Shown: positions 2,579 through 37,520, numbered from the stretch's first letter. The stretch is 37,520 nt of DNA from a virus (IMGVR_UViG_3300045974_000563); one strand, 5' to 3'. The notes: generated from the letters alone by a model not told the origin. Made by a program: numbers and translations.

Positions 2579-2977
2579 TCAAGACTTCCCGCGCCGATCA
2601 CCACCCTGACGCTGGTAGTAATCGGGGTCCGGCTTTTCCGGGGAGCGCCGTTCGTTAGACCGTTTTTCCGGAGATCCCGTGGCGACAGGCGGCACAATGC
2701 AGATAAAAGGACCGTTTTCGTCGCCGATGGGTTGGAGCGGAATCGCCGTCCTACCTGCAGCAAATCCAATCGGCAAACCATCCTGCACGTTTGGGTATAT
2801 ATCGGGCCTTATCTGATGCGGGGTTACCACCCAGCCAGTCTTTTCAGCAGCATCCAGAACGCGCTCAGCCGGCACGCCATCGCGCACCCATTTGCGAAAT
2901 GCTTCTCCGGAAACACCATTCGCACGGGCCGCCGCAGCCTTAGTCTTATAAAAAAGGAGTAGTGACATGGCGCACAT
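2579..2977 (-). CDS. Cro/YdaS-like HTH regulator. The probable start is the ATG at 2968
   Basis: N-terminus KTKAAAARANGVSGEAFRKWVRDGVPAERVLDAAEKTGWVVTPHQIRPDIYP resembles Cro/YdaS-type HTH proteins. It is divergent from the repressor gene. The long C-terminal tail is unverified. Confidence 0.55.
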   Translation of the reverse strand: MCAMSLLLFYKTKAAAARANGVSGEAFRKWVRDGVPAERVLDAAEKTGWVVTPHQIRPDIYPNVQDGLPIGFAAGRTAIPLQPIGDENGPFICIVPPVATGSPEKRSNERRSPEKPDPDYYQRQGGDRRGKS

Positions 2978-3521
2978 TATTGCAACCGATAGTTGCCATA
3001 GTCAACAACTGATTCGTGCAGCGATTATGAATATTGTGCAACCCATGGTTGCAAATACTAAAAAAGACTTCGCGGACCGCCTGAATTTATCCTGCGATAA
3101 CGCGAAACCGCCCGTCATTTCCGGCCGGGGTAGGCGTGCAGAACTAAAACGTCGGGTGTATGCGTGCGGATTGACCGTATCCGGAGAATCCGTTCGTAAA
3201 TGGCTCAGCGACGAATCAATACCATCGATGGATAACGTGCGATTTATCGCTATCGCATTGGGCGTGGAAGCAGACTGGCTACTTACGGGCCGGGCGGTAC
3301 CGGATCACCGCCAGGCGGATTACGATGTAAAATCTGCAGCGCAAGTCCTAGAACTCAATGAGCCAGCAGCATCACCATTCTTAAGCGCCCGTCAAAGACA
3401 TATCCAGGAGATCGTTGAACTTCTAAGCACTATCAACGATTATGGTGTGGTAATCGTGCGCGATAAAGCGAAGGACATGTCCCTTGAATTTCCCGTTGAT
3501 CTATCGCAAACGGGATCGTGA
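2967..3521 (+). CDS. CI-like XRE-family repressor without an S24 peptidase domain. The true start is probably ATG 3027 or 3045
   Basis: HTH segment LTVSGESVRKWLSDESIPSMDNVRFIAIALGVEADWLLTG. Divergent from the cro-like gene. The first 60-80 nt of the track ORF overlap the cro start and the operators. I see no Ser/Lys autocleavage motif. Confidence 0.6.
   Translation: MAHIIATDSCHSQQLIRAAIMNIVQPMVANTKKDFADRLNLSCDNAKPPVISGRGRRAELKRRVYACGLTVSGESVRKWLSDESIPSMDNVRFIAIALGVEADWLLTGRAVPDHRQADYDVKSAAQVLELNEPAASPFLSARQRHIQEIVELLSTINDYGVVIVRDKAKDMSLEFPVDLSQTGS
2976..3005 (-). promoter_or_regulatory. Leftward early promoter: TTGACT (3005..3000) - N18 - TGcAATAAT (-10 at 2981..2976)
   Basis: Hexamers read on the minus strand. 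The same GTTGTTGACT -35 context is duplicated at 4394..4403. The predicted start site falls near the ATG at 2968. Confidence 0.45.
2981..3054. promoter_or_regulatory. Operator repeats TGCAACC-N3-RGTTGCM at 2981..2997 and 3037..3053 (perfect palindrome tgcaacc-cat-ggttgca), with a degenerate copy at 3004..3020
   Basis: 17-bp inverted repeats seen directly. Related copies occur at 4383..4399 and 4427..4443. Confidence 0.6.
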
Positions 3522-3612: not shown

Positions 3613-4329
3613 TCAAGGAAGCTGCCGAATCGCTTCAACTGCACTTTGCGCCATCATCGCCGCCATTTTAGGAATGACCTCCTGAATGGTCTTGTCGAGA
3701 TCTTCGACGCGAAGATAAACATCATCCGAATCTGCCCAGCGTTGGTCCGGCGTAGCAGCAATGGTCGTTTCCGAATCCTCATAATTGTCGCCAAAAACGA
3801 TGCGATCTGACGCGGTACAGTCGTTTTTCACGGCCGGCGTAACGATGCAATAAACAGCGTACACAGAAGGCTGGTAATACGATTTATTGTGATGCGAACG
3901 GACGCCAATACTCTCAAAATAGGTATAGATGACGGTCTTTCCATCCGGATTGATGGTCGACGATTGAATCGTTTCCGGTTTTGTCGGATCAACCCTGGCT
4001 CTCCGCTGATCGCCAAGCGCCACCCCAAGCGCTGATAATTCGGCGCGAAATTCAGCATGCAATTTTTGACTGTACTTTTGATCGCGCCGATACATCATCC
4101 CCGTCAGTCGGTCGCTCATTCCACTATTTCTAGACCTCGTGACGAATAGCGACAATGGCGCAGTCAGCACCGTGCCAATGACGTTGAAATCACTGCGCAT
4201 GGTGTAGGCAATTGGCTCAGGTCCATAGAGCGTATCGATCGGCGCATCGTTCTGCCTCTCTGCGAACGCCGCCGACGAGAGACATTCCGCAGCAATTAGT
4301 GCGAATGGCGCCGCAATCTTGAGTTTCAT
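3613..4329 (-). CDS. Secreted protein of unknown function (moron-like), with a signal peptide
   Basis: N-terminus MKLKIAAPFALIAAECLSSAAFA|ERQ has an AXA cleavage site. RBS aggggg precedes the ATG. The region is visibly more AT-rich than the rest and sits between the repressor gene and the rightward promoter. Confidence 0.6.
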   Translation of the reverse strand: MKLKIAAPFALIAAECLSSAAFAERQNDAPIDTLYGPEPIAYTMRSDFNVIGTVLTAPLSLFVTRSRNSGMSDRLTGMMYRRDQKYSQKLHAEFRAELSALGVALGDQRRARVDPTKPETIQSSTINPDGKTVIYTYFESIGVRSHHNKSYYQPSVYAVYCIVTPAVKNDCTASDRIVFGDNYEDSETTIAATPDQRWADSDDVYLRVEDLDKTIQEVIPKMAAMMAQSAVEAIRQLP

Positions 4330-4382: not shown

Positions 4383-4444
4383 AGCAACTATTGGTTGTTG
4401 ACTCCATGGAATTTCAGGTGATACAGTGCAACCATTAGTTGCCA
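4383..4444 (+). promoter_or_regulatory. Rightward early promoter: TTGACT (4398..4403) - N18 - TGaTACAGT (-10 at 4422..4427), flanked by operators at 4383..4399 and 4427..4443
   Basis: Hexamers and operator repeats read directly. Same architecture as the leftward promoter. Confidence 0.5.
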
Positions 4445-4601
4445 TTAACCAACCAGGAGCACCAAATTACCCTCACCCTCGCCGGCCTCAAAGTCCACCT
4501 CGCCCACTGCGCTTTGGACCACCGCCACGGCCGTAGCATCGGCCTGACCTTCACGGCCAGCGGCATCCCCGCCGTCCCGGTCCGCCACTGAGGCGAATGC
4601 C

Positions 4602-4874
4602 ATGCCCATTCGCCACTACCTAAAACTCAACGAATTGCAGCAGGACGAACTTAAAGGCCTGTTCAACCGCCTGCGTAAAACGCCCGGCGGCGAGCTGATG
4701 GCCCAGGTCTGGAAAGACGGGGCGGTCGTCAGCCTGATCGACGCGCGAATGGTCGACGCCATTCAGGCGGTGACCGGCCAAACAGGGACCAGCCGATCTG
4801 CCCTGGAAAACTTTAACCATCCCGCCGCACCGAATATCGCCAAGGCCTTTGCCGAAGAGGATCACACCCAATGA
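4602..4874 (+). CDS. Hypothetical protein (90 aa), first gene of the rightward operon
   Basis: ORF track. Its stop overlaps the start of the next gene. Confidence 0.5.
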   Translation: MPIRHYLKLNELQQDELKGLFNRLRKTPGGELMAQVWKDGAVVSLIDARMVDAIQAVTGQTGTSRSALENFNHPAAPNIAKAFAEEDHTQ

Positions 4875-5503
4875 CCACCGACAACACCCTAGCCAGCCTC
4901 AAACGCCGTCTCGAAAAAGCCGAACTGGTGCATCTGCGCAACCATGCCGGAGAACTGGCATCTCGCCTGGAACGCGCCGAAGAAGAATCAACATCTGCCT
5001 GGGCCGCCGCCGAAATGTGGCGTGAAGATCACCTGCAGCTCATGCAGGAATTGGCTGCTGATGGCCACGCTATCGGCCTGACCAAGGAAGGTACCGTCGG
5101 CCTGATGGCCGAAATAAAATCATCCGCCTGCGCCATCGGCGAACAATGGCCAGGCACCGACGCCATCTATGCCGGAATCTCGCTGTCAAGCGACAACGCC
5201 CGTGCCGTGCATCTGATCCTGTGGCCGGAAACCAATACCAAGCAACTCGATCACGCCGCCGCCATCGCAGTAGCGGAAGCCGTCAATCCGGAGCACGGAA
5301 GCCATATTCCAACCCGGATTCAGTCCGTGACCCTGTACGGCAATTTGAAGGATTGCTTCGACAAGTCGCCCTGGTACTGGACATCCACAAAACACGAGAA
5401 CGGCGAGTGGGCGTTCATCCAGTTCTTCAACAACGGCTACCCGGACCTCCACGACCTCTCTGCCGAGTGTCGGGTCCGTGCCGTCAGCGAGATTCCACTT
5501 TAG
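4871..5503 (+). CDS. DGR target protein 1 (type A): N-terminal coiled coil plus DUF1566/C-type-lectin-like C-terminus carrying VR1
   Basis: C-terminus WYWTSTKHENGEWAFIQFFNNGYPDLHDLSAECRVRAVSEIPL. The last ~80 nt match the TR except at TR adenines. Confidence 0.85.
   Translation: MTTDNTLASLKRRLEKAELVHLRNHAGELASRLERAEEESTSAWAAAEMWREDHLQLMQELAADGHAIGLTKEGTVGLMAEIKSSACAIGEQWPGTDAIYAGISLSSDNARAVHLILWPETNTKQLDHAAAIAVAEAVNPEHGSHIPTRIQSVTLYGNLKDCFDKSPWYWTSTKHENGEWAFIQFFNNGYPDLHDLSAECRVRAVSEIPL
5410..5488 (+). repeat. DGR variable repeat VR1
   Basis: Aligns without gaps to TR 10808..10886. There are 8 differences, all at TR adenines (aac->ttc, tac, gac, ctc, cac; cag->ccg). Confidence 0.9.
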
Positions 5504-5537
5504 TCCTTCAACCCTTCAATACTTAAGCCCTTTCGCC

Positions 5538-5744
5538 ATGCTCAATCCTTCTGCAACGACGCGAGCTGTAGTGCACGATTTTGAAGTCACCATGCATCGT
5601 AAGGCCTGCCTGAATGCCAATGAAGCCGCCCGAAAATGCATCGTGTTCGTGCGCGCCACCGACGTCGGAGAAGCCAAGAAAGCTGCAGATCGTCTGCCTC
5701 ATAAACGCGCTTTCATGGCCATGTCGGCAAGGCAAGTCAAATGA
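5538..5744 (+). CDS. Hypothetical protein (68 aa from ATG 5538)
   Basis: ORF track frame. The track start at 5478 is a GTG inside VR1, so the ATG at 5538 is preferred. Confidence 0.4.
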   Translation: MLNPSATTRAVVHDFEVTMHRKACLNANEAARKCIVFVRATDVGEAKKAADRLPHKRAFMAMSARQVK

Positions 5745-5908
5745 TCGCCGCCATTTTCTTTCCAGCCGATCCGGAAGCCTGTGTTTTCGATCTGGTCGAG
5801 CAGGCGCACCAGGCGCAGCGCGCCGGCCTGCGCCTCTATACCAACGGCATCCGCTTCGCCCTGCTGCCGCACCCGATCGCTGGATGGGCACTGTGGGGAA
5901 CGCGCTGA
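5741..5908 (+). CDS. Hypothetical small protein (55 aa; below the track cutoff)
   Basis: The ATG at 5741 overlaps the upstream stop as ATGA. The stop at 5906..5908 lies 2 nt before the next ATG. Confidence 0.35.
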   Translation: MIAAIFFPADPEACVFDLVEQAHQAQRAGLRLYTNGIRFALLPHPIAGWALWGTR

Positions 5909-5910
5909 TC

Positions 5911-6243
5911 ATGGCCCGCCATAGCAACCCTTTCGGCGCATTTGAGATCGATTCATTGCCCGGCCAAAGCCAGGTCGCTGTCTGCCATGCCTTCTTTGTT
6001 CCCGAAGACCTGCGCGGCCGGGGCTATGGCCATTGCCTGAAAGAACTGCAAGAGATCGAGCTGGATATCCAGCATTACGACCTGGCTATTTGCACGGTGG
6101 CCGCCGGCAACAGGCGTCAAAAGCGCGTACTCAAGCAGGCCGGCTGGCGCTATCTGATCGGCTTTCGTAATCGCCGCTCAGCGGAGACCACCGAACTGTG
6201 GTGCCGAGGTGGGCAGGCCGCGGAATCCTCATGCGACGCCTGA
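5911..6243 (+). CDS. Small GNAT-like acetyltransferase (110 aa)
   Basis: The motif VPEDLRGRGYGHCLKEL fits the R/Q-x-x-G-x-G/A acetyl-CoA loop, and KRVLKQAGWRYL is GNAT-like. The start is taken at ATG 5911 inside track ORF 5614..6243. Confidence 0.5.
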   Translation: MARHSNPFGAFEIDSLPGQSQVAVCHAFFVPEDLRGRGYGHCLKELQEIELDIQHYDLAICTVAAGNRRQKRVLKQAGWRYLIGFRNRRSAETTELWCRGGQAAESSCDA

Positions 6244-6329
6244 TCGAAACCGTCCTCATCTCGATAGCCATCATCGTCTGCGGCGACGTGGCCAGCGGCG
6301 GAAACCAGATTGAGGGCTACGGCGAATGA
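6231..6329 (+). CDS. Possible 32-aa membrane peptide
   Basis: Translates as MRRLIETVLISIAIIVCGDVASGGNQIEGYGE, with ATGA overlap to the next ORF. Very short, so uncertain. Confidence 0.25.
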   Translation: MRRLIETVLISIAIIVCGDVASGGNQIEGYGE

Positions 6330-8470
6330 TTACCGGACCCACCGTCATTACCGGACCCACCGTCTTACTCGAAGGAACCATCTCAATGAATGACCTGACC
6401 GACCTCAAGCACATCGAAGCGACTCAGCTCTGCCACAGCCAGGCGCTGCTGATTGCCGAGATCCACCCCAGCCCAACCAACCCGCGCAAGACCTTCCCCG
6501 AAGCCGATATGGCGGAGATGGTCGACAGTGTCAAGCGCCACGGTGTCATGCAAGCCATCCTAGTCCGCCCGTGGCCAGAGGCCTATGCCTTCGAGGGCGA
6601 GCGCCCGAAGTATGAACTGATTGCCGGCGAGCGCCGCTATCGCGCTGCTAAAACCGCCGGCCTGACCTACATCAGCGCCACCGTTCGCGATCTGGATGAT
6701 CATGAAACCCTCGAGCTGCAGATCGTCGAGAACCTGCACCGCAAAGACCTTAACGAGCTCGAAGAAGCCGAAGGCTACGAGATGATGGTCAAGCGCTATG
6801 GCTACACCGCCGAGCAGCTGGCTGAGAAGATCGACAAGAGCAAGGCCTACATCTACGCGCGCCTCAAGCTGACCGCCGCCGGCGAAGCAGCCCGTACTGC
6901 ATTTCGCGAAGGCCACCTTGATGCTTCTCGCCTTCTGTTGATCGCCCGGATTCCGACTGAAAGGCTACAAGAAGAAGCGTTGGCAGAAATCAACGACGAA
7001 GGCTATCGCGGGCCCATGAATTACCGCCAGGCGGCGAAATACATCCAGGAAAACTATATGCTGGATCTGGCCAAGGCACCTTTCTTGTCGTCCGACCCCG
7101 AGCTTATTCCCATGGCCGGCCAATGCGGAACCTGCCCCAAGCGAACCGGCAACAATCCAGATCTTTACCCAGAGGTGAAAAGTGCAGACATCTGCACCGA
7201 CACAGCCTGTTTTGCGGCCAAGAAAACCGCCCACTTCGTCCGCATCAAGGATGCTGCCAAGACGCAAGGTAGAACCGTAGTTGATGGTGAAGCCGCCGTA
7301 AAACTGCTACGCAACGGCGATTGGGATATCAAGGGCTTCGTCAAACTTGACGATAAATGCTACCAGGCAGGTTTCCGATCAGAAGGTGGATATCCCACCT
7401 ATCGCGAATTATTGGCTGATAAAGGCGTACCGGTCACGCTGATCGAGAAGCTGGACGGCACGCTGATCGAGACGGTCGAGGAGAAAGCCTTCACCGCTAT
7501 CGCCGCCGAAGTCGGCGCCAAGCCCAAGACAACGAGCAACAGCGGCGATAAGGAGCGCACCGCTAAGGAAAAAGCCGAAAACGAATTCCGCCAGCGCCTG
7601 TTTGATCAGGTCAGCCGCGCCTATCAGGAATCATTTGACGGGCAAGACCACCTGGATATCTTCAGCCTGCGTTTGATCGCTCGCCAGTTCTTTTCCTGTA
7701 CCTGGAACGAATACCAGAAAAAGCTGGCCACCCGCTGGCTACCCAGCGAAGAGAAAATCGACTCGCACGAGCGCATCCAGCAACTCACTCGGCTGATCGA
7801 TACCATGCCGTTGGCGCAGCTTAATCTGTTCATGATCGAACTGGCCCTGATCGGCATGTCGCACGTCGGTAGCTATGGCGCTACGGAAACTCCAGCCCCC
7901 TTCCTCGCTGCCGCTCAGCATATGCTCATCTCGCCAGACACGATTCGGCGCGAGATCAAGGCCGAACAGGATGCCAAGGCGGCTGGCAAGGGCAAGAAGG
8001 CGGCGAAGACCGCAAGCCCGGAGTTTGCCGAAGGCAGCTATGTCGAGATCATCGCCTACGATACCCAGAAGGATCTGATTGGTTCCTTTGGCCAGGTCAA
8101 AGCCGTCGGCCGCGCCATCGCTTCCGGAAAACCGATCTACACGCTGCTGCTCGCCGATGGCCTTTCCCTAGTTGCCGATTCAACCGAGCTAGCCAGCGCC
8201 ACACAGGCCGCTTTCGAGACCCAACAGGACGAACGCAATCCGGCGAATGCCGCCGCACAGGCCGGCGACGAACCCGCCGTGGTCCACAGCAAACGTGTTG
8301 TCACCCCCATCGCTTATCGCCACCCCGACAACGTCGGTCTGGCATGGACAGGCCGCGGCCGTCAGCCCAAATGGGTTGAGCACTGGCTGGCGCAGGACGG
8401 TAACACCCTGGAACAGCTTGCTGTTGGCCAGCCGCGCTGTGACAAGACGATTGACATCCCCGGGCTGTAA
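6326..8470 (+). CDS. ParB/Srx N-terminal domain protein with a Cys-rich ribbon and an H-NS-like C-terminal DNA-binding domain
   Basis: YELIAGERRYRAAKTAGL...IVENLHRKDLNELEEAEGY is the ParB box. Cys cluster: CGTCPKRTG...ICTDTAC. C-terminus AYRHPDNVGLAWTGRGRQPKWVEHWLAQDGNTLEQL carries the H-NS TWTGRGRxPxW motif. An alternative start is ATG 6386. Confidence 0.7.
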   Translation: MITGPTVITGPTVLLEGTISMNDLTDLKHIEATQLCHSQALLIAEIHPSPTNPRKTFPEADMAEMVDSVKRHGVMQAILVRPWPEAYAFEGERPKYELIAGERRYRAAKTAGLTYISATVRDLDDHETLELQIVENLHRKDLNELEEAEGYEMMVKRYGYTAEQLAEKIDKSKAYIYARLKLTAAGEAARTAFREGHLDASRLLLIARIPTERLQEEALAEINDEGYRGPMNYRQAAKYIQENYMLDLAKAPFLSSDPELIPMAGQCGTCPKRTGNNPDLYPEVKSADICTDTACFAAKKTAHFVRIKDAAKTQGRTVVDGEAAVKLLRNGDWDIKGFVKLDDKCYQAGFRSEGGYPTYRELLADKGVPVTLIEKLDGTLIETVEEKAFTAIAAEVGAKPKTTSNSGDKERTAKEKAENEFRQRLFDQVSRAYQESFDGQDHLDIFSLRLIARQFFSCTWNEYQKKLATRWLPSEEKIDSHERIQQLTRLIDTMPLAQLNLFMIELALIGMSHVGSYGATETPAPFLAAAQHMLISPDTIRREIKAEQDAKAAGKGKKAAKTASPEFAEGSYVEIIAYDTQKDLIGSFGQVKAVGRAIASGKPIYTLLLADGLSLVADSTELASATQAAFETQQDERNPANAAAQAGDEPAVVHSKRVVTPIAYRHPDNVGLAWTGRGRQPKWVEHWLAQDGNTLEQLAVGQPRCDKTIDIPGL
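6329..6364 (+). repeat. Perfect 18-bp tandem duplication attaccggacccaccgtc x2
   Basis: Read directly. It encodes ITGPTV ITGPTV if the ParB-like ORF starts at 6326. Confidence 0.9.
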
Positions 8471-8495
8471 TTCATCCACAACGAAAGGAAGATTC

Positions 8496-9092
8496 ATGCA
8501 ACAAACGCAAACCCCGCAAATCGGCACTGCCTTCGAAGGCGGTTTCTTTGGCGGCGTCATCAACGTCAATGGCCATCACAAGGGCGTCATCTGGGCCCCG
8601 AAAAAACCCGGCAGCTTTCCTGCCGTTCTGTTGGATGAAGACAAAATCGTCACCGATGCCGGCAGCCCGTTCGACTGCCTTAACAATACTCTGGCGCTGC
8701 TCTCCGCCGGCAGCCATGCCGCCAAGTATGTAACGGGTCTGAAGATCAACGGCTTCCAGGACTGGCTGATTCCATCGCGCGACGTGCTCGAGCTCGGTTA
8801 TCGCCACTTCAAGCCGACCACGGACACGAACTGGTGTAGCTGGCGCGACGGCGAGAACCACAACAGCGTTCCACCAGGCTGGCTCTACACCCGTCAACTG
8901 CCTAGCCAGACATCACTCGAAGCCTTCAAGGCCGGCGGCGATGAGGCCTTCGATGTCGTCTGGCATTGGTCATCAACCGTACATCCCGATGGCGACTCGG
9001 CGTTCATCCAGCACTTCTTCCTCGGCAGCCAGTGCGACAGCGCCCTCTCTGCCGAGTGTCGGGTCCGTGCCGTCAGGCTGATTCAACTTTGA
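8496..9092 (+). CDS. DGR target protein 2 (type B): DUF1566/C-type-lectin-like, carrying VR2
   Basis: ATG 8496 follows RBS aaaggaag. Motifs GGFFGG...DWLIPSRDVLEL...WHWSST...AFIQHFFLGSQCDSALSAECRVRAVRLIQL. The 3' end matches the TR. Confidence 0.85.
   Translation: MQQTQTPQIGTAFEGGFFGGVINVNGHHKGVIWAPKKPGSFPAVLLDEDKIVTDAGSPFDCLNNTLALLSAGSHAAKYVTGLKINGFQDWLIPSRDVLELGYRHFKPTTDTNWCSWRDGENHNSVPPGWLYTRQLPSQTSLEAFKAGGDEAFDVVWHWSSTVHPDGDSAFIQHFFLGSQCDSALSAECRVRAVRLIQL
8996..9076 (+). repeat. DGR variable repeat VR2
   Basis: Ungapped alignment to TR 10805..10885. There are 11-13 differences, all at TR adenines. Confidence 0.9.
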
Positions 9093-9127
9093 TCCTTGAA
9101 TCCTTCAATACTTATCAGGAACTCATC

Positions 9128-9721
9128 ATGCAGCCCACCAATTTCACTATCGGCGCCGCCCTTGAGGGCGGATTTTTCGGCGGAATTATCAACGTCTCCG
9201 GTCAACAAAAAGGCGTCATCTGGGCGCCGAAGCAGGAAGGCCAGATCAAGGCTCGCCTGATGCCGCAAGGTCGCCGCATCCTGTCGGCCCATAGCCCGAA
9301 TGACTGCCTGACCAATACGCAGCAATTGCTTGGTGTCGGCAGCCCAGCCGCTCAGCGCATCGCCGAAATGAACATCAATGGCTTCGCCGACTGGCTCATT
9401 CCGTCCCGCGACGTGCTCGAACTCGGCTATCGCCATTTCAAGCCGACCACCTACAAAAACTATTGCAGCTGGCGCGATGGCGAGAACCTCAACAGCGTTC
9501 CACCAGGCTGGCTCTACACCCCGGAACATCCGGCGCAGACGGCACTGGTTGATTTCCAGATAGATGGCACCGAAGCCTTCGACGATTACTACTACTGGAC
9601 CTCGACCGTCCTGCCGACTGGCGAAACGGCGTTCTTCCAGACCTTCCTCAACGGCGTCCAGGGCGACAGCGTCCTCTCTGCCGAGTGTCGGGTCCGTGCC
9701 GTCAGGCTGATTCAACTTTAA
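9128..9721 (+). CDS. DGR target protein 3 (type B, tandem paralog of target 2), carrying VR3
   Basis: MQPTNFTIGAALEGGFFGGIINV...DWLIPSRDVLELGYRHFKPT...YYWTST...AFFQTFLNGVQGDSVLSAECRVRAVRLIQL. Confidence 0.85.
   Translation: MQPTNFTIGAALEGGFFGGIINVSGQQKGVIWAPKQEGQIKARLMPQGRRILSAHSPNDCLTNTQQLLGVGSPAAQRIAEMNINGFADWLIPSRDVLELGYRHFKPTTYKNYCSWRDGENLNSVPPGWLYTPEHPAQTALVDFQIDGTEAFDDYYYWTSTVLPTGETAFFQTFLNGVQGDSVLSAECRVRAVRLIQL
9625..9705 (+). repeat. DGR variable repeat VR3
   Basis: Ungapped alignment to TR 10805..10885. There are 11 differences, all at TR adenines, including atc->ttc. Confidence 0.9.
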
Positions 9722-9757
9722 CCCTTGAATCCTTCAATCCTTCATCGGAAAACCACC

Positions 9758-10240
9758 ATGAAACTGCATATCGAGAATCTCAATATCACCGTGTCTCACC
9801 CTCAGCAGCCTGCAGGGCTGCTCGCGACGCTGGCCTTTGCCAACGCCGTATCCAGCACGCCAGCACCAGCGATCGGCGAGAAATGGCCGGGCACCGAAGC
9901 CACCTATGCCGGCATCGCGCTTTCCAGCGCCGGCGACAGCCTCGTCCATCTGCTGCTCTGGGATGAGTCGAACGATATCGCCCTGCCCTACGCCAAAGCT
10001 GTTGCCTACGCCGAAACGGTAAATCGCGACATGAACAGCCACCTCCCGACGCGCCATCAAAGCATCACGCTCTTCGAGAACCTGCAGGCCAGCTTCAACC
10101 AGGACTACTACCACTGGACGCTGACCAAAACCAAGAGCGGTAAATCGGCGTTCATCCAGTTCTTCACCTACGGCTACCAGTACACCTGCGACCTCTCTGC
10201 CGAGTGTCGGGTCCGTGCCGTCAGCGAGATTCCACTTTAA
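9758..10240 (+). CDS. DGR target protein 4 (type A paralog of target 1), carrying VR4
   Basis: ATG at 9758 (the track start 9725 is a TTG). IGEKWPGTEATYAGIALSS... parallels target 1. C-terminus AFIQFFTYGYQYTCDLSAECRVRAVSEIPL. Confidence 0.85.
   Translation: MKLHIENLNITVSHPQQPAGLLATLAFANAVSSTPAPAIGEKWPGTEATYAGIALSSAGDSLVHLLLWDESNDIALPYAKAVAYAETVNRDMNSHLPTRHQSITLFENLQASFNQDYYHWTLTKTKSGKSAFIQFFTYGYQYTCDLSAECRVRAVSEIPL
10144..10225 (+). repeat. DGR variable repeat VR4
   Basis: Ungapped alignment to TR 10805..10886. There are 9-10 differences, all at TR adenines. Confidence 0.9.
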
Positions 10241-10280
10241 TCCTTTAACCCTTTAGTCCTTTAGTCCTTTAGTCCTTCAA
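10241..10280 (+). repeat. Five tandem octamers (tcctttaa ccctttag tcctttag tcctttag tccttcaa), starting at the first base after the target-4 stop
   Basis: Read directly. Shorter arrays of the same octamer follow the stops of targets 1-3 (5504..5519, 9093..9108, 9722..9745). Confidence 0.9.
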
Positions 10281-10282
10281 CC

Positions 10283-10660
10283 ATGCTTCATACCAACCTG
10301 CCGATTTACAAGAAGGGTTACGACTTGTTAACCCTTGCCGCCGATGTTCAGCTGAACATGCCCCGCACGTTCAAGCAAAGCCTCGGCAAGCGCGTTTCAG
10401 ACGAATGCGTCGATCTGCTCCTCGAAATCGGCTACGCCAATGCCAGCCGAGGCGAAGCACGCTGCGAGCACATCCGCAGCGTGCTTCGCGGGCTGGAAGT
10501 GGTCTCACTGATGATGCGAGTCAGTTTCGACAAGGGCTTTATCTCGCGAAAGATATGGGCCTGCAGCATCGAAATGACCAGCACCATTGGCGGCCAGGCA
10601 GGCGGATGGCTGAAGAAGTCAGCACCCGCGTCTGATTCACAGGGGTCAAGGCTCCTATGA
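10283..10660 (+). CDS. avd: DGR accessory variability determinant (Avd-like four-helix-bundle protein)
   Basis: 125-aa basic helical ORF directly upstream of the TR and RT. N-terminus LPIYKKGYDLLTLAADVQLNMPRTFKQSLGKRV is typical of Avd. Its stop overlaps the RT ORF ATG (ATGA). Confidence 0.8.
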   Translation: MLHTNLPIYKKGYDLLTLAADVQLNMPRTFKQSLGKRVSDECVDLLLEIGYANASRGEARCEHIRSVLRGLEVVSLMMRVSFDKGFISRKIWACSIEMTSTIGGQAGGWLKKSAPASDSQGSRLL

Positions 10661-11988
10661 CCGTGCGCTTTATGAATCTGGTCGCACCCCTGCCCCACAA
10701 GGGCACGGACATGCACACCACGGATACCGCAGATCTCTTCTCTGGCTGGTCCGGTGCAGTTTCCCCGCTGAACAGTCAGCAGGGCGACGTCGATAGTGCG
10801 AACGAACGGCGTTCATCCAGAACTTCAACAACGGCAACCAGAACAACAACGACCTCTCTGCCGAGTGTCGGGTCCGTGCCGTCAGCAGATTCATCCCACT
10901 ACACCTTCGAGTTGTTGCTGCGTGCGTATCTGGATTGTCGCAAGCACAAGCGCAACTCGAAGAGTGCCCTGGCCTTCGAGCAGGATCTCGAACGCAACCT
11001 GTGGCAGCTGCACCTGGAACTGAGCGACGGTTCCTACTCCCCCGGAAAATCGATCTGCTTCGTCATCACGCGCCCGAAACCGCGCGAAGTATGGGCTGCC
11101 GATTTCCGCGATCGCATCGTGCATCACCTGTTGCACAACCAGGTTGGCCCCCGCTTCTACGCCCGCTTCATTGCCGACTCCTGCGCTTGCATTGCCGGCC
11201 GTGGCACACTGTACGCAGCTGAACGACTCGAGGCCAAAGTCCGCAGCATTACGCAAAACTGGCGGCGCCCGGCCTACTACCTCAAGTGTGACCTGGCCAA
11301 TTTCTTTGTCGCGATCGACAAGCACATTGTGCAGGCACTGTTCGCCAAGCACATCAACGAACCATGGTGGCTGGCGCTGGCAGAAACCATCCTGTTTCAC
11401 GATCCGCGCCAGAACTTTGAATACCAGGGCAACCCGGCTTTACTGGAACGCGTTCCGCCGCATAAGCGCCTGAGCAGCCAACCGGCCCACCTTGGGCTGC
11501 CGATCGGCAATCTGTGGTCGCAGTTCTCCGCCAACGTTCTGCTCAATGTGCTTGACCAGTTCGTCAAGCACGAGCTGCATTGCCGGCACTACATCCGCTA
11601 CGTCGATGATTTCATCCTTCTACACGAGTCGGCACAGTGGCTCAATGCCGCCAAGGCCCGGATCGAGCAGCTGCTTGCCAAACAACTGGCAATGCATCTC
11701 AACCCCAGCAAAACCATCCTGCAGCCCATCAAGCGCGGCATTGATTTCGTCGGCCAGGTCACTAAGCCCCATCGCCGCACTCTGCGCCGCAAAACCTTCA
11801 AAGACGCCATCCGGCGACTCGAATCCATCGACGCCACCGATGTTTTTCAGACGGCCAACAGCTATTTTGGCCTTCTTCGTCAGACCACCCACAGCCATCA
11901 AGACCGGGCCATTCTCAGCAACACCCTTCGCCATCGCGGCCACAGCATCAAGGCCGATCTCACCAAGACCTATCGGAGAACCGCATGA
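10657..11988 (+). CDS. DGR reverse transcriptase (true start uncertain; the TR lies within the 5' part of the long ORF)
   Basis: RT motifs FRDRIVHHLL, GLPIGNLWSQFSANVLLNVLD (DGR-type IGNLTSQ-like) and YVDDFILL. Follows avd and the TR. Confidence 0.9.
   Translation: MTVRFMNLVAPLPHKGTDMHTTDTADLFSGWSGAVSPLNSQQGDVDSANERRSSRTSTTATRTTTTSLPSVGSVPSADSSHYTFELLLRAYLDCRKHKRNSKSALAFEQDLERNLWQLHLELSDGSYSPGKSICFVITRPKPREVWAADFRDRIVHHLLHNQVGPRFYARFIADSCACIAGRGTLYAAERLEAKVRSITQNWRRPAYYLKCDLANFFVAIDKHIVQALFAKHINEPWWLALAETILFHDPRQNFEYQGNPALLERVPPHKRLSSQPAHLGLPIGNLWSQFSANVLLNVLDQFVKHELHCRHYIRYVDDFILLHESAQWLNAAKARIEQLLAKQLAMHLNPSKTILQPIKRGIDFVGQVTKPHRRTLRRKTFKDAIRRLESIDATDVFQTANSYFGLLRQTTHSHQDRAILSNTLRHRGHSIKADLTKTYRRTA
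10805..10886 (+). repeat. DGR template repeat (TR), rich in AAC codons in the VR reading frame
   Basis: aacggcgttcatccag AAC ttc AAC AAC ggc AAC cag AAC AAC AAC gac ctctctgccgagtgtcgggtccgtgccgtcagc. It carries A wherever the four VRs differ. Confidence 0.9.
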
Positions 11989-12827
11989 CCATTCCGCTTT
12001 GCATTTACCACCACGCCTGCGCAGATGGCGTTGCCGCTGCCTGGGCGGTGCGCGAGCACTATCGCCTCAAAGGCAGCGATGTTGAATTCTTTCCCGGCAT
12101 CTACGACGAGGCGCCGCCCGACGTCACTGGACGCGATGTGATCATGGTCGATTTCAGTTACAAGCGCCCAGTCTTGCTGCAGATGGCCGAGCAAGCCAAT
12201 AGTCTGCTCGTCATCGACCATCATAAAACCGCTATGCAAGATATTATCGATCTTCCTTTTTCGATCGATCTGGAATTTTCCCTTAACCATTCGGGCGCAA
12301 TGCTTGCATGGAACCGCTTTCACCCAGGCCAAGATGCACCGCTGCTCTTCGATCATATCCAGGACCATGACCTCTGGCGCTTCGCGCTTAGCCATACCCG
12401 TGAGATCACCGCCGCCGTCTATTCCCACCCGATCACACCAACGAACTTCGGCGACCTAATCAACGCCGGTATCCGGTCGCTGATCGCCGAAGGGATTTCC
12501 CTGTTGCGCAAGCAGCGTCATGACATCGATGCCATTATCCGCGATGCAGTTCGCCAGATGCGCTTTGGCGAGACGCTGGTCCCCGCCGCCAACGTACCCT
12601 GGATGTACGCCAGCGACGTCGCCGGGATCCTGGCCGAAGGCCAACCCTTTGCCGTCACCTATTACGACGATGCCAAGGGCCGGCGCTTTTCCTTGCGTTC
12701 CACCCCGGACGGTGCAGACGTCTCCACGATCGCCGAGGCCTTCGGCGGCGGCGGTCATGAACATGCGGCCGGATTTCGCATGACGCGGGAAGAAGCGATC
12801 GATTTCGAAGTGGCGGGAGGGGTGTGA
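11985..12827 (+). CDS. DHH/DHHA1 family phosphoesterase
   Basis: Motifs HHACADG, IMVDFS, VIDHHKT, QDHDLW and GGGGHEHAAGF. The ATG overlaps the RT stop (ATGA), with ggagaa as the RBS. Confidence 0.75.
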   Translation: MTIPLCIYHHACADGVAAAWAVREHYRLKGSDVEFFPGIYDEAPPDVTGRDVIMVDFSYKRPVLLQMAEQANSLLVIDHHKTAMQDIIDLPFSIDLEFSLNHSGAMLAWNRFHPGQDAPLLFDHIQDHDLWRFALSHTREITAAVYSHPITPTNFGDLINAGIRSLIAEGISLLRKQRHDIDAIIRDAVRQMRFGETLVPAANVPWMYASDVAGILAEGQPFAVTYYDDAKGRRFSLRSTPDGADVSTIAEAFGGGGHEHAAGFRMTREEAIDFEVAGGV

Positions 12828-13327
12828 TCGTGAGCCACACAAATATACCCTGGTCAACCAGAACCGGGCGCCATCTCGGTGAAACGCTCATCGTTGGGGA
12901 TAATGGCCGTCAGGTCATCGGATATTTTCAGCAGCCCAATATCGGGGGGTCACACGAAGACAATGCGCTACGAACCATCTCCTGCGTCAATGCCTGTGCT
13001 GGAATTCCCAACGACTATATCTCTAATGTTGTTTCCTTTGGCCTTCAAGGTCACAACAAAGTTTCAGACGATCTAATGGCAGCTCGAGATGCTTTGCTGC
13101 ACGAAGGCATGCAGCGCGATGACCTTCTGGCTGCACTTCACGCGATTGTTGCAGAACTTAACCAAGGATTGAACTGCTCGCAAACGACCATTCGTAAAAT
13201 AACTCAGGAAGCCATCGCCAGCGTGGAAGAATCGGCAGTTGTCAAGGATTCCTTGACAACTGAAATATCAATCCCCGCCCTCGTCTTCTACCCTGCCGGC
13301 AGCCTGGGCGAAGAGGTGCAGCCTTGA
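12824..13327 (+). CDS. Hypothetical protein (about 165 aa), more AT-rich than its neighbours
   Basis: ORF track. GTG start at 12824 or 12830 after gggagggg. Overlaps both neighbours. Confidence 0.5.
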   Translation: MIVSHTNIPWSTRTGRHLGETLIVGDNGRQVIGYFQQPNIGGSHEDNALRTISCVNACAGIPNDYISNVVSFGLQGHNKVSDDLMAARDALLHEGMQRDDLLAALHAIVAELNQGLNCSQTTIRKITQEAIASVEESAVVKDSLTTEISIPALVFYPAGSLGEEVQP

Positions 13328-13845
13328 CCTGGCTACTCACCGCCTCCGGCAAGCAGTTCGATCCCGTCGACCCGCAACCCGACATGATTGACTTGGTCGA
13401 TATCGCCAATGGCCTATCGAACGAATGCCGCTTTGCCGGCCAGTGTCGATACTTCTACAGCGTCGCCCAACACTCGGTACTGGTCAGCCAGAACGTACCC
13501 CGCGAAAACGCCTGGGAAGCTCTGCTGCATGATGCCGCGGAAGCCTATATCAAGGATATCCCGGCGCCGATCAAGCGACTGCTCCCAGACTACCGCGCCC
13601 TCGAGCACAAGATCGAGGCCGCGATCCGCGCCCGCTTTGGCCTGCCGGATAGCCAGACACCCATTGTCAAGCATGCCGATCTCGTTTTGCTCGCCACCGA
13701 GCGCCGTGACCTGATGCCGCAAGATGGCAGTTCCTGGCAGATGCTCAAGGGGATCACTCCGCTCGATAAGCGCATTCGGGCCGTGCATTCATCAGCCGCC
13801 AAATCCCTGTTCATGCAGCATGCTCTGGAGGTACTGCAGGCATGA
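13324..13845 (+). CDS. HD-domain phosphohydrolase (YfbR-like 5'-nucleotidase type)
   Basis: SVAQHSV...LLHDAAEAYIKDIPAPIK...HADLVLLATE match the HD metal-binding motifs. TTG start overlaps the upstream stop. Confidence 0.65.
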   Translation: MTWLLTASGKQFDPVDPQPDMIDLVDIANGLSNECRFAGQCRYFYSVAQHSVLVSQNVPRENAWEALLHDAAEAYIKDIPAPIKRLLPDYRALEHKIEAAIRARFGLPDSQTPIVKHADLVLLATERRDLMPQDGSSWQMLKGITPLDKRIRAVHSSAAKSLFMQHALEVLQA

Positions 13846-14507
13846 AGAATCGCCGCGTTCACTGGTCTGAGCCTTTGACCGAACTGCTCATCGAGACGTA
13901 TCCGCACATCCCGACCCAGTGGCTGGCCAGCGTTCTTAAAATCAGCATCCAGGCCGTTTACAACAAAGCCTTGTCACTGGGCCTGACCAAGACAGCCGAA
14001 TTTATGGCCAGCGAATTTGGCACTCGCCTTCGCCGGGGCGACCAGATTTGCGCTGCTACACGTTTTCGAAAAGGGCAGACCCCCTGGAACAAGGGGAAAC
14101 ATTACGTCGCCGGAGGCCGGTCAGCTGATACCCGATTTACGAAAGGTAATCAATCCGGCCGGGCCCGACAGCTTTATCAGCCGATCGGCAGCGAGCGCCT
14201 GAGCAAGGATGGCTATCTGCAGCGCAAGATCAATGACGACATGCCCCTGCAGAGACGCTGGCGCGGTGTCCACATCATCAACTGGGAAGCCATCAATGGC
14301 CCCCTCCCACATGGCCACGCTCTCATCTTCAAGGATGGCAACAAACAGAACACCGATCCGGAAAATCTGGAACTCGTCACTCGTGCCGAACTGATGCGCC
14401 GAAATTCATGCCATCGCTACGGCAAGGAAATCGCCCAACTCGTTCAGCTTCGCGGCGCCCTCACTCGTAAGATCAACAGCATCGAAAGGAAACAACATGG
14501 CCAATGA
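13842..14507 (+). CDS. HNH (HNH_3-type) homing-like endonuclease with N-terminal HTH
   Basis: VHIINWEAINGPLPHGHALIFKDGNKQNTDPENLELVTRAELMRRN. The ATG overlaps the HD gene stop. Confidence 0.65.
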   Translation: MKNRRVHWSEPLTELLIETYPHIPTQWLASVLKISIQAVYNKALSLGLTKTAEFMASEFGTRLRRGDQICAATRFRKGQTPWNKGKHYVAGGRSADTRFTKGNQSGRARQLYQPIGSERLSKDGYLQRKINDDMPLQRRWRGVHIINWEAINGPLPHGHALIFKDGNKQNTDPENLELVTRAELMRRNSCHRYGKEIAQLVQLRGALTRKINSIERKQHGQ

Positions 14508-14811
14508 CACCATCGAACTGCGCAACATCCTATTCGACACCCTGCGCGATCTCCGCGACAAGAAAGACCCGATGGATATCGAGCGCGCCAGGACGATTAG
14601 TCAGGTAGCGCAGACCGCAATCAGTTTGGCCAAAGTCGAGGTCGACCACATGAAGGTTACGGGAGCGCCATCGTCATCCGGCTTTCTGCCAGCACCGGCT
14701 ACGCCGACGGCAACCGGATCAAGCACTCAACAGGTTCCCGCATTGCCGAAAACACCCGGCGTTGCTGAACAGATCATGGCGGCCAATGTCACCCGCCATG
14801 AGTGCAAGTAA
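14497..14811 (+). CDS. Hypothetical protein (104 aa)
   Basis: ORF track. RBS aaaggaaac. Confidence 0.5.
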   Translation: MANDTIELRNILFDTLRDLRDKKDPMDIERARTISQVAQTAISLAKVEVDHMKVTGAPSSSGFLPAPATPTATGSSTQQVPALPKTPGVAEQIMAANVTRHECK

Positions 14812-14838
14812 CGCCATAGTTTAAAACCGGAACATTCC

Positions 14839-15123
14839 ATGGCACGCTACGTCCTCATCGCCAAATTCTGTGAGCTGACAGGCTACACAGACACGGCCGT
14901 GCGTGCCAAGATTAGAGATGAAGTATGGCTGGAAGATCAGGAATACAAAAAAGCACCTGACGGCCACATCGTTATCGACATGGATGGATACGAATTATGG
15001 GTGGAGAAAGGTCTTACGAAGGGGTTCGCTCCCGTAGCGCAAAAAGCATCGAGATCGATTTCATCTACCGGGAAGAACGTTGCCGGGAAACATTCAGGAT
15101 CGCCCCAACCCCTGCAAATCTGA
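14839..15123 (+). CDS. xis: Excisionase-like protein
   Basis: Small ORF just upstream of and overlapping int. FCELTGYTDTAVRAKIRDEVWLEDQEYKKAPDGHIVIDMDGYELW resembles excisionase-type winged-helix proteins. Confidence 0.55.
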   Translation: MARYVLIAKFCELTGYTDTAVRAKIRDEVWLEDQEYKKAPDGHIVIDMDGYELWVEKGLTKGFAPVAQKASRSISSTGKNVAGKHSGSPQPLQI

Positions 15124-16205
15124 AGAAGGTGTCCCGGCATCGAGCTTCGATCCTCGATGCGATCGCGCACAATATTTTCGACTATGCTGTCACCTTCCCG
15201 GAATCCAAAAACCGCTTCAAATTTGCCGACCGGCCACAGAGCGCCGGTACTTGCCTAGAGGACTATCTCGAAATATGGATCACGGGCAAGCAGAAGCAGC
15301 TGAAGGCCAGCACCTGGGCTGGATATAACAAAATTGTCATCATGCTCAACCAGACCGACCTGGGGCGCATCCTGCTGCCCGATCTTCGCCGAGTTCACGT
15401 GCGCGACTGGTGCAAGAAGCAGGTGAGTAGTAACAAATGGCTGGCCAACGTGCAAAGTGTGCTGCGCTCGGCTCTGCAGGATGCCCTGGATGATGACCTG
15501 ATCGAAACTAATCCGCTCTATGGCTGGAAGTATGAAAATGCCGACACCATCAAGGTCAAGGATGACGTCGATCCGTTCGAATCAAACGAGCGCGAGGCGA
15601 TACTGGCCGCCATGATAGAGCCTCAGCACAAAAACATGTTCGAGTTTCTGTTCTGGACCGGCCTGCGCACATCAGAGCTGGTCGCGCTGACCTGGGACGA
15701 TATCGACTGGATACGCGATGAGGCCAGAATCAACAAGGCCAAGACGCAGTTTGCCGACGAGCCGGAGACAACCAAGACACGCAAGGGAATCCGCGATGTC
15801 AAACTGCTCGCGCCGGCCCTGGCCGCACTCAAGCGCCAAAAGGAACAGACATTTTTACAAGGGGGAGTTATTTTCCGCGATCCGCGCACTGGCGAACCGT
15901 GGGAGGGCGACGAGGCGATCCGCCAAGGCCCCTGGAAGACGGCGATCAGGAAATCTGGGGCCAGATATCGACGCCCCTACCAAACACGTCATACCTACGC
16001 ATCCATGATGCTCACTGCGGGCGAGCCGCTTGGATGGGTTGCCAATCAAATGGGGCACAGCGATCTGAGCATGCTGGCCCGGGTGTACGCCCGGTGGATC
16101 AAGTCGGCGACACCCGATGTGGGCAACAAAGCCGTGGCCATGTTTTCCGCCAATAAAACCTGTGACTCAAATTGTGACTCAGCGAAGTCAAATGACGATA
16201 TATAA
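14997..16205 (+). CDS. int: Tyrosine integrase (lambda-type, with arm-binding N-terminal domain)
   Basis: GVRSRSAKSIEIDFIYREERCRETF is the N-terminal domain. The catalytic region includes TGLRTSELVALTWDDI and TRHTYASMMLTAGEPLGWVANQMGHSDLSMLARVYARW. Confidence 0.9.
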   Translation: MGGERSYEGVRSRSAKSIEIDFIYREERCRETFRIAPTPANLKKVSRHRASILDAIAHNIFDYAVTFPESKNRFKFADRPQSAGTCLEDYLEIWITGKQKQLKASTWAGYNKIVIMLNQTDLGRILLPDLRRVHVRDWCKKQVSSNKWLANVQSVLRSALQDALDDDLIETNPLYGWKYENADTIKVKDDVDPFESNEREAILAAMIEPQHKNMFEFLFWTGLRTSELVALTWDDIDWIRDEARINKAKTQFADEPETTKTRKGIRDVKLLAPALAALKRQKEQTFLQGGVIFRDPRTGEPWEGDEAIRQGPWKTAIRKSGARYRRPYQTRHTYASMMLTAGEPLGWVANQMGHSDLSMLARVYARWIKSATPDVGNKAVAMFSANKTCDSNCDSAKSNDDI

Positions 16206-18186: not shown

Positions 18187-18460
18187 TGCCCCCTCCGATT
18201 TTTGACGGCGCTGCGCCATCCGGCCATTGCCGGTATTCCGGCGATGATTGCAGACGTTTCCACTCGGCTTCGTAGGCCGCCTGGCAATGATTTGGCTGCC
18301 AGAAGAACAGGCCATCGATGAGCTGACGCGCCCGGGCCCAGGAAGCCGAACGCTCGCGCAGGCGCCAGGCGTGCGCCGACAGCGTTTCATCGGCCCAGCC
18401 ATCGCTGGTCAGCGTGTTGAAGACCTGGTCGACAGCAATCAGAAACTGATGGATTCTCAT
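18179..18460 (-). CDS. Hypothetical protein (93 aa)
   Basis: ORF track. Overlaps both neighbours. Confidence 0.45.
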   Translation of the reverse strand: MRIHQFLIAVDQVFNTLTSDGWADETLSAHAWRLRERSASWARARQLIDGLFFWQPNHCQAAYEAEWKRLQSSPEYRQWPDGAAPSKIGGGNA

Positions 18461-18897
18461 CGCCAGGCCGCCGGCACGATCTCATCCATCCGTGCGGCCG
18501 TGATCAGACCGGCAGCGACAAGCGCCTGCAGACCGCCGAGCGTGCGCGGATCCTTGTAGACAATCTCGGTGGCGGCGATCATGCGGTCGTACCAGAGCTT
18601 GACCTGCGGACTGGCCAGCGTCGCCGTGACGATGGCCAGTTGCTCGGCATCGGTGAAGCGGTCCATGAACTGGAGGGATGTCGACGATCGGGGAATGAGA
18701 CTAGTTGGACTGACATAGGCCGCGATCGCGCCGAATTCGCCGGCCTCAGCCCGTATGAATAATTCGCGACCGTGAGATTCGGTATCGCTCGCGCTGGCTG
18801 AGAAGGAAACTTCATCGCCTATCCACGGAAAATTCACGATCAGATCAATCGCCGTATGCTCGTCGTCAGACCATTTAGGTGTATGCGCAGTAATCAT
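18457..18897 (-). CDS. Tail fibre assembly/chaperone-like protein
   Basis: Position directly after the fibre gene. The segment ESHGRELFIRAEAGEFGAIAAY resembles tail fibre assembly proteins. Weak call. Confidence 0.4.
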   Translation of the reverse strand: MITAHTPKWSDDEHTAIDLIVNFPWIGDEVSFSASASDTESHGRELFIRAEAGEFGAIAAYVSPTSLIPRSSTSLQFMDRFTDAEQLAIVTATLASPQVKLWYDRMIAATEIVYKDPRTLGGLQALVAAGLITAARMDEIVPAAWR

Positions 18898-37166: not shown

Positions 37167-37520
37167 TCAGCGCTTCAGACGGGCCGACAACTGGCCTTCC
37201 ATCAAGCTGGCAGAGGCGACCAAGGCGTAGACGCCCTGGCGAACGACCTCCGTGTAATGCGATATATCCCGTTCTCCCGTCCCGTTACATCGCGGACAAG
37301 GAACAACCTTGTCCTCGACCATGACCATCGACCGCCCATCACATGTCATGCACCGACCGTTGTTCCACACATCGAGCGCCTTCCACGCTGCCCCATTCGC
37401 CACATCAGCCGGATGCCCCATCTCGATCAACGTCGTTGCCAGGTGCAGGACGATGTTCCAGGCGTTCGCTGCAGTCGGTTCACTCGACAGGTAGCGCACT
37501 ACGGCAAAGCCCAGCGGATT
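37167..37520 (-). CDS. Q-like late antiterminator, 3' part (joins 128..244 across the circular junction; about 156 aa in total)
   Basis: Two CxxCxGxG-type knuckles (CMTCDGRS, CPRCNGTG). Lies between the replication module and the late operon. Family assigned by recollection. Confidence 0.5.
   Translation of the reverse strand, partial: NPLGFAVVRYLSSEPTAANAWNIVLHLATTLIEMGHPADVANGAAWKALDVWNNGRCMTCDGRSMVMVEDKVVPCPRCNGTGERDISHYTEVVRQGVYALVASASLMEGQLSARLKR
37394..37520. repeat. Second copy of the 127-bp terminal repeat
   Basis: Identical to 1..127. Confidence 0.95.

Follow-up and report, generated by a model that had tools for sequence, protein, structure and literature searches.

A diversity-generating retroelement with four small lectin-fold targets in the early operon of a temperate siphophage

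A retroelement with four target genes

The window analyzed here, that is, the whole 37,520-nucleotide stretch of viral DNA IMGVR_UViG_3300045974_000563, carries a retroelement with variable regions at the 3′ ends of four small genes. By its sequence the locus is a canonical diversity-generating retroelement (DGR), with a reverse transcriptase (RT), the accessory protein Avd, and a template repeat (TR) paired with variable regions (VRs) that differ from it at adenines only. We describe the element, its four target proteins and their genomic setting, and then consider where these proteins may act.

All four targets are encoded on the plus strand, with the VR at the 3′ end of the gene. Target 1 (T1; 210 residues, 4871-5503, VR1 at 5410-5487) is remote from the cassette formed by target 2 (T2; 198 residues, 8496-9092, VR2 at 8999-9076), target 3 (T3; 197 residues, 9128-9721, VR3 at 9628-9705), target 4 (T4; 160 residues, 9758-10240, VR4 at 10147-10224) and the DGR machinery. 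The start codons given for T2, T3 and T4 (8496, 9128 and 9758) are revised ones. The proteins are thus of the size announced by an earlier, sequence-only reading of this DNA (about 160-210 residues), and they lie on the strand opposite the structural genes, as it had stated.

The TR core (78 nucleotides, 20 of them adenines; 10808-10885, plus strand) is located in the spacer between the Avd and RT genes and encodes TAFIQNFNNGNQNNNDLSAECRVRAV, with seven AAC codons. Its GC-rich 3′ core of 32 nucleotides, CTCTCTGCCGAGTGTCGGGTCCGTGCCGTCAG, occurs exactly five times in the window, in the TR and the four VRs, where no copy is expected at random. The window holds no further copy with up to three mismatches and the tail genes have no VR, which upholds the earlier claim that the fiber gene lacks TR homology. 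Over the 78-nucleotide core, VR1 to VR4 differ from the TR at 8, 11, 11 and 9 positions, respectively, and all 39 of these 39 mismatches fall at TR adenines (P per VR from 2e-8 to 5e-6). Among the VRs, the non-adenine sites are 98-100% identical, whereas the 120 nucleotides upstream are merely 34-62% identical. At the sequence level, this pattern is the signature of repeated retrohoming from a single template into diverged paralogs, and the homogenized non-adenine sites argue for recent DGR activity. Exact-pattern scans of the metagenome, performed twice, and of viral contigs yielded no near-identical genomes for comparison of the VRs; the three contigs with T2 apparently hold the four targets in identical form, as their contig counts are equal.

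The Avd protein (10283-10660, plus strand) matches the PHROG family "Avd protein of DGR" with an E value of 7.6e-22. Its scores against Pfam bAvd (34.3 bits, E 3.5e-8) and NCBIfam DivGenRetAVD (36.7) are below the curated cut-offs of 40 and 80, respectively. The RT (~10912-11988, plus strand) matches RVT_1 (PF00078) above the cut-off (E 2.4e-10) and the PHROG RT family with an E value of 2.4e-111, and its translation contains YVDD and IGNLWSQ, which correspond to the DGR-type motifs YxDD and GxxxSQ. The longest open reading frame (ORF) for the RT starts at 10657, in the region of the Avd stop codon, and its 443 codons read through the TR. As homology to RTs begins at ~10912, an automatic ORF call from 10657 would wrongly include the template repeat.

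The TR and the VRs share the identical 32-nucleotide GC-rich 3′ segment, after which the sequence becomes VR specific or TR specific. A hairpin such as that of phage BPP-1 was sought after the VRs and rejected, as none was significant (z from -1.8 to +1.0). Instead of a GC-rich hairpin, 8-nucleotide tandem repeats stand after the stop codons of the targets, with 2.8 to 5.4 copies per target. They form an array directly after the T4 stop (CTTTAGTC/CCTTCAAT; 10235-10282), shorter arrays after T2 (9092-9113) and T3 (9723-9744), and a similar motif after T1 (~5504-5525), all on the plus strand. The motif following the VRs is conserved in four related loci (L003, L008, L016 and L021), and these repeats may represent a cis element of this DGR clade.

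Two classes of lectin-fold proteins

T1 and T4 (type A) are 54% identical over 141 residues, and T2 and T3 (type B) are 64% identical over 190 residues. The two types can be aligned with each other solely over their C-terminal ~60 residues, in agreement with the two paralog classes recognized from the sequence alone. Type B, of which T2 is the example and T3 a paralog, is a bare Lcl_C/DUF1566 domain of ~198 residues without any extension, and more than 150 relatives are all ~195-205 residues long. Type A is built of a conserved N-terminal peptide of 35 residues, a linker that varies in both sequence and length, and a ~120-residue lectin domain. T4 is a canonical member of this family, whose proteins have 160-167 residues and a strongly conserved N terminus (MKLHIENLNITL..QPPAGLIAALAIAGAA). 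In T1 and a few relatives, this N terminus is replaced by ~85 heptad-like residues, which we infer to form a coiled coil.

AlphaFold2 models reached a pLDDT of 96 for T2 and above 90 for the domain of T4, the N terminus of which was modeled with low confidence as one helix. For both models the top structural match was 8q4e_A, the C-terminal domain of the Legionella Lcl protein (probability 1.00, TM-score 0.64 on target length), followed by C-type lectin-like domains. Structure prediction thus bears out the C-type lectin fold that had been proposed earlier. Scores with the Pfam Lcl_C family (PF07603) were 16.8, 20.3 and 22.3 bits for T1, T2 and T3, below the gathering cut-off of 34.9, and T4 had no match. 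The family assignment therefore rests on the fold and on the homologs, and a precomputed PF07603 match exists for many type-B homologs. The targets are free-standing proteins with a C-type lectin fold (Lcl_C/DUF1566) that belong to two subfamilies. The variable residues of T2 (173-183) were placed by the secondary structure of the model on a predicted beta-hairpin (residues 168-183).

Cys58/59/61 and Cys114 of type B co-occur in 87 of 116 cases and are not obligatory, and type A has none of them. Conserved cysteine pairs as the sign of an oxidizing, extracellular site were thus dropped as uninformative. Relatives of the target proteins are found mostly in Betaproteobacteria, namely Sulfuriferula, Rhodocyclaceae, Propionivibrio and Comamonadaceae.

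The targets are encoded in an early operon

A promoter-like site resembling the PL promoter (TTGACT-18-TACAGT; 4398-4427, plus strand) precedes the target genes and is flanked by two palindromes of the form CAAC-N5-GTTG (4385-4397 and 4429-4441). The same palindrome is present twice (2983-2995 and 3039-3051) in a divergent switch made up of a YdaS/Cro-like ORF (2579-2977, minus strand) and a repressor-like ORF (2967-3521, plus strand), both recognized by family scans, with a promoter-like site on the minus strand (3005-2976). These four matches, two at the early promoter and two at the switch, compare with 0.39 expected in the window, and the palindromes are probably operators. That the same palindrome is common to the early promoter and the switch supports shared repressor control; by analogy with PL and PR of phage lambda, one repressor would control both promoters. 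The sequence-only reading had placed a repressor-guarded early promoter near 4400, where this site is found.

From ~4400 to 16205, the plus strand forms a single, tightly packed operon whose last genes code for an excisionase and an integrase (xis and int). Its first gene encodes a 90-residue protein (4602-4874) for which the Pfam and PHROG scans gave no family match, and the stop codon of which overlaps the start of T1 (ATGA). The product of the gene at 6326-8470 (714 residues) is a fusion of ParB_N, a ParB helix-turn-helix and an H-NS C-terminal DNA-binding domain according to Pfam, PHROG and NCBIfam, an unusual combination of domains. ParB-like genes account for 10 neighbor ORFs near the cassette across 32 IMG/VR loci examined. 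Downstream of the RT (11985-16205), the operon continues with genes for a DHH phosphoesterase, a 167-residue protein, an HD-type deoxynucleoside monophosphate phosphatase, an HNH protein and a 104-residue protein before xis and int. The ParB-like protein, the DHH and HD enzymes and xis/int are confirmed, but the "GNAT" label of the earlier reading (5911-6243) has neither Pfam nor PDB support.

On the basis of this gene context, the reading that we favor, with a probability of roughly 0.4, is that the targets are soluble, early-made, hypervariable binders that act inside the infected cell. Upon infection or induction the early operon would be derepressed, and RT, Avd and the TR RNA would rewrite the VRs while the phage genomes replicate. 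Among the first proteins expressed from a progeny genome would then be an individual, small repertoire of two to five soluble hypervariable binders. The binders would act intracellularly on variable host or competitor molecules, in anti-defense or host takeover, with the type-A N-terminal peptide or the putative coiled coil of T1 serving to tether or oligomerize them; what would be diversified is post-entry host range, not adsorption. We consider it unlikely, as a more specific proposal, that this phage-only DGR clade supplies temperate phages with a small and constantly re-randomized set of cytoplasmic "antibody-like" inhibitors with a lectin fold, directed at polymorphic host defense or competitor proteins. 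The defense library PADLOC, NCBIfam and PHROGs gave no functional match for the targets.

Very improbably, the targets might instead be expressed from the prophage as hypervariable sensors or decoys that shield the lysogen from superinfecting phages. Their genes lie in the accessory portion of a temperate phage genome, DGRs of cells can have targets that are not membrane proteins (PMC8144416; PMC7517822), and phage Medea1 and locus L020 (see below) retain orphan pairs of type-B and type-A genes without an RT. Against prophage expression, the operon promoter shares the operators of the switch and should be off in lysogens, and the gaps of 26-43 nucleotides that separate the genes for ParB, T2, T3, T4 and Avd leave no room for internal promoters. 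Moreover, the targets have no effector domain and no PADLOC match.

Export and membrane signals

Export features were judged by Kyte-Doolittle (KD) hydropathy and motif searches, which detected no classical signal peptide, lipobox, twin-arginine motif or transmembrane helix in the four targets. Their KD maxima over 19 residues (KD19) are 0.83-1.26, compared with 1.71-1.99 for secreted or membrane controls of the same phage. None of 179 relatives has a lipobox, and 7 of the 179 reach the transmembrane-like threshold of KD19 ≥ 1.6. The earlier statement that the targets are signal-less therefore holds for T1 to T3 by hydropathy but has to be amended for T4, which like the whole type-A family carries a conserved short hydrophobic helix (KD11 ~2.0, KD19 1.26) after the conserved sequence MKLHIENLNIT. 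This helix resembles the h-region of a signal peptide, but the N-region that precedes it is long, conserved and uncharged.

Soluble extracellular lectins, released by lysis or exported atypically via the hydrophobic type-A segment, could coat receptors on debris or on nearby cells and thereby mask receptors, exclude competitors or prevent wasteful re-adsorption. Such a role would be compatible with independence from the tail type; the fold family mostly binds cell-surface ligands (the Lcl adhesin 8q4e, fiber tips), and the conserved hydrophobic helix of type A has AxA-like ends. We nevertheless regard it as improbable, as a classical signal peptide or lipobox was found in none of ~180 family members examined, and known masking proteins such as Llp of phage T5 and Cor are lipoproteins. 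It would also leave the immediate-early placement of the genes without a reason, and the idea is entirely speculative.

The cassette recurs in phages with unrelated tails

The canonical order of the module is type-B target, type-A target, Avd, TR and RT; in our phage, type B is duplicated and one extra, remote type A is present. Among 83 fetched loci, the arrangement B-A-Avd-RT is found in 48 and A-Avd-RT in 57, and 7 loci have a remote upstream type A as seen here. In this phage and in Burkholderia phage Magia, the remote target is gene 1 or 2 after the early promoter. In all annotated loci, the cassette is located downstream of a CI/S24-type repressor gene and upstream of xis/int. The layout recurs in prophages, among them those of Propionivibrio and Rhodocyclaceae, and in the phages Magia, LPPA56, Haboob and vB_Sb_QDWS. 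A survey of related phages for the same gene context, which the sequence-only reading had suggested, found the early-left position kept in at least 48 loci and in about 10 isolated phages, both siphophages and myophages, with unrelated tails.

Neighbors of the cassette include YqaJ/PDDEXK/RecT/Bet proteins, DNA methylases, PAPS-reductase/DUF5131 proteins and a Gam-like "host nuclease inhibitor." In a set of 147 representatives of neighbor ORFs, the most frequent families are integrase, methylase, DUF2303, VapE and SRAP, and the sole tail match is one GpJ protein at a module boundary. The cassette lies beside tail genes in none of ~60 non-redundant loci of the clade.

The RT clade, defined by at least 60% identity, comprises 11 phage records from ~9 distinct isolates (Magia, LPPA56, Haboob, Cruim01, vB_E192a, vB_PL1, vB_Sb_QDWS, phPA-G and SC_8_H2H8_2017), and other phage DGR RTs are ~30-36% identical to that of our phage. 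The RTs of this phage, Magia and LPPA56 are 61-77% identical, and the three phages have no structural protein in common. Outside the cassette, the matches to LPPA56 are the HD gene and, weakly, CII and the head protease. The phages that host the cassette also differ in their tails; they include a myophage, a siphophage of the lambda-J type and the present HK97-like one. A search for loci with a related tail module but no cassette found two, both too short for a judgment. The position of the genes, the fact that it is conserved among phages with different tails, and the absence of an attachment domain from type B argue for a function independent of the virion. We found no description of this phage-only clade, its fixed early-operon position or a non-structural role in the literature searched.

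Some loci depart from the canonical module. Pseudomonas phage Medea1 (L002, 7142-8961) and L020 (8269-11900) have type-B and type-A genes in their early regions but lack both Avd and RT, and the target genes of L020 directly precede xis/int; these orphan targets are presumably frozen. In three IMG/VR loci (L064, L054 and L056), type B is absent and three to four type-A targets are arrayed before Avd-RT. The target repertoire grows through duplication.

Genome of the host phage

Bases 1-127 of the window are an exact copy of bases 37394-37520, which leaves 37,393 bp of unique sequence. This exact terminal duplication is an assembly overlap, indicating that the genome is complete and circular. 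By PHROG and Pfam scans, it is that of an HK97-like temperate siphophage. The virion and lysis genes are all on the minus strand. They code for an HNH protein, large terminase, portal, protease, major capsid, adaptor and neck proteins, a 1580-residue tape measure protein, holin, endolysin and Rz, and for three small distal-tail or fiber candidates of 294, 372 and 146 residues. The last two are encoded within 18457-20015, the 146-residue protein with a fiber-like N terminus and the 372-residue protein with a DUF5907 repeat. The YdaS/Cro-like gene of the switch and a CII (CP76) gene lie on the minus strand to the left of position 2977. No tRNA genes were found in the window.

Two other ORFs on the minus strand stand out. 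The first (539 residues, 29112-30731), inside the head-tail block, has a G+C content of 0.49 compared with ~0.58, no PHROG match and a weak GDSL/SGNH esterase match at its C terminus; a moron or an esterase that modifies receptors would be possible identities. The other (238 residues, 3613-4329), between the repressor gene and the early promoter, has a low G+C content and a signal-peptide-like N terminus, and is moron-like, without a family match.

Intracellular binders or detachable adhesins

Several observations weigh against an intracellular function of the targets. Matches to the T2 fold in BFVD are the C termini of Peptidase_S74, collagen-repeat and "tail fiber" proteins, in addition to small free proteins. 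A profile search of 1.84 billion representatives retrieved 9,853 relatives, and the best 150 of these comprise 59 free-standing, 39 long single-domain, 32 tandem and 20 partial proteins. In 30 of the 39 long single-domain proteins among these best 150, the domain is C terminal, and 5 of 10 sampled long relatives have N termini matching tail-fiber PHROGs. The residues conserved in free copies of type B are conserved to the same degree in fiber-fused copies, which indicates that they belong to the scaffold rather than to a dedicated docking face; for the same reason, the idea that the free form has a conserved surface of its own was rejected. Two free homologs are encoded in the tail/lysis cluster of the virulent siphophage PMBT3, and one of them overlaps the stop codon of the gene for a 495-residue protein with virion-structural and tail-fiber PHROG matches. 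With respect to the proteins themselves, the hydrophobic helix of type A might act as an unusual signal for export or anchoring, and the lack of a signal peptide cannot distinguish virion proteins from cytoplasmic ones. In addition, the RT clade is present in none of 72,556 plasmids, although anti-defense genes often spread among mobile elements. Finally, the early position might have another cause, namely that the DGR machinery depends on phage recombinases and replication; in an engineered system, DGR cDNA can be integrated by a single-strand annealing protein (bioRxiv 10.1101/2025.03.24.644984). This idea would account for the position of the genes but not for their function.

Some of these observations lend weight to the possibility, which we hold to be somewhat doubtful, that the targets are detachable receptor-binding adhesins. 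As such, they would be cytoplasmic products that attach to the virion non-covalently at the tail tip, fiber or capsid, or work with the fiber as accessory adhesins like gp38 of T2-type phages, and adsorption would be diversified as in BPP-1 despite the unusual location of the genes. All characterized phage DGRs target a receptor-binding protein (PMC5758913, PMC8144416), and the type-A "anchor" peptide with its variable linker and the heptad-like region of T1 look like devices for tethering or oligomerization. The same domain caps fiber-like proteins in many phages, and the stand-alone homologs of PMBT3, one overlapping a fiber-like gene, fit the idea as well. In contrast, within the clade of our phage the cassette is invariably part of the early-left operon and opposite in strand to the late genes, never beside tail genes in the ~60 loci, and the phages with these different tails have no virion protein in common to which the targets could dock. 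Type B has neither an extension nor a conserved surface that only its free form displays, and no similarity was detected between the targets, N termini included, and the virion proteins or fiber candidates of this phage. The possibility of a spare receptor-binding domain cassette for recombination into the fiber gene was rejected, since the targets have no homology with the fiber candidates. No virion proteomics for PMBT3, Magia or Haboob is reported in the literature searched.

The proposal of intracellular binders made in the sequence-only reading thus stands in that the targets are not fiber genes and belong to a conserved, repressor-guarded early operon. It is weakened by the occurrence of the type-B domain as a fiber tip elsewhere and by the PMBT3 context. 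That reading regarded homologs fused or adjacent to fiber genes as evidence against its proposal; such homologs exist in the wider family but not in this DGR clade.

Phage DGRs are understood almost wholly via the diversified receptor-binding tail protein. The clade described here spans temperate phages of Beta- and Gammaproteobacteria, including cultured Pseudomonas, Burkholderia and Shewanella phages. If the targets are intracellular binders, programmed hypermutation would be used for anti-defense or host takeover, which would be new. If they are adhesins, small early-encoded proteins would join virions of very different architecture, which would be new as well. The cultured members Magia, LPPA56 and Haboob make the question directly testable, and the minimal scaffolds of 120-200 residues are attractive for binder engineering.

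Comparison with known systems

Like the mtd-avd-TR-brt system of BPP-1, the DGR of our phage combines Avd, a TR and an RT with adenine-specific rewriting of a C-terminal VR in a C-type lectin fold, and both TR and VR have a conserved GC-rich 3′ end. The two differ in that Mtd is a fiber-tip protein encoded in the late tail operon, whereas the early-left operon of our phage encodes four free-standing targets, and in that 8-nucleotide tandem repeats rather than a GC-rich hairpin follow the VR. A target within the tail module or encoded with it, as Mtd is, was found neither here nor in at least 48 related loci. Type B has no N-terminal domain for attachment to the virion, and type A has its 35-residue peptide, modeled at low confidence.

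By description, the targets can be likened to category "d"/CLec2 of Wu et al. 2018 (DUF1566; Legionella LdtA; the multi-target DGR of Stenotrophomonas SKA14), in which a DUF1566-type lectin domain contains the VR. Short proteins with nothing but DUF1566 make up about half of the category, and multiple targets in tandem have been recorded (PMC5758913, PMC6642488). LdtA is a surface lipoprotein, unlike the present targets, which have no lipobox or signal. An early-operon position and a phage-only clade are not reported in these DGR surveys, and viral DGR targets have been classed as "structural" or "unknown" (PMC8144416).

The Magia group shares with our phage the RT clade, at 61-65% identity, small lectin targets and a place between repressor and integrase, and differs from it in virion modules, Magia being a myophage, and in target numbers. 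The announcement of the Magia genome remarks on "relatively short reading frames" and suggests a change of host range (PMC7883833).

With tail fibers tipped by Lcl_C/DUF1566 domains, type B has in common the scaffold motifs GGFY.G, DW.IPA.D.LEL, YR.LKPT and YWSST, but the targets have no fiber N terminus or shaft and are encoded away from the fiber genes and the late operon. A small separate adhesin can decide host range, as gp38 of T2-type phages does; gp38 has a fold unrelated to that of the targets, and its gene adjoins that of gp37. Cellular DGRs with putatively cytoplasmic targets, such as those for cyanobacterial regulatory proteins and those of candidate phyla radiation (CPR) and DPANN organisms whose targets have no transmembrane segments, are a precedent for targets other than surface proteins (PMC8144416; PMC7517822). 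The cellular targets are multidomain signaling proteins, whereas those described here are phage-encoded single lectin domains.

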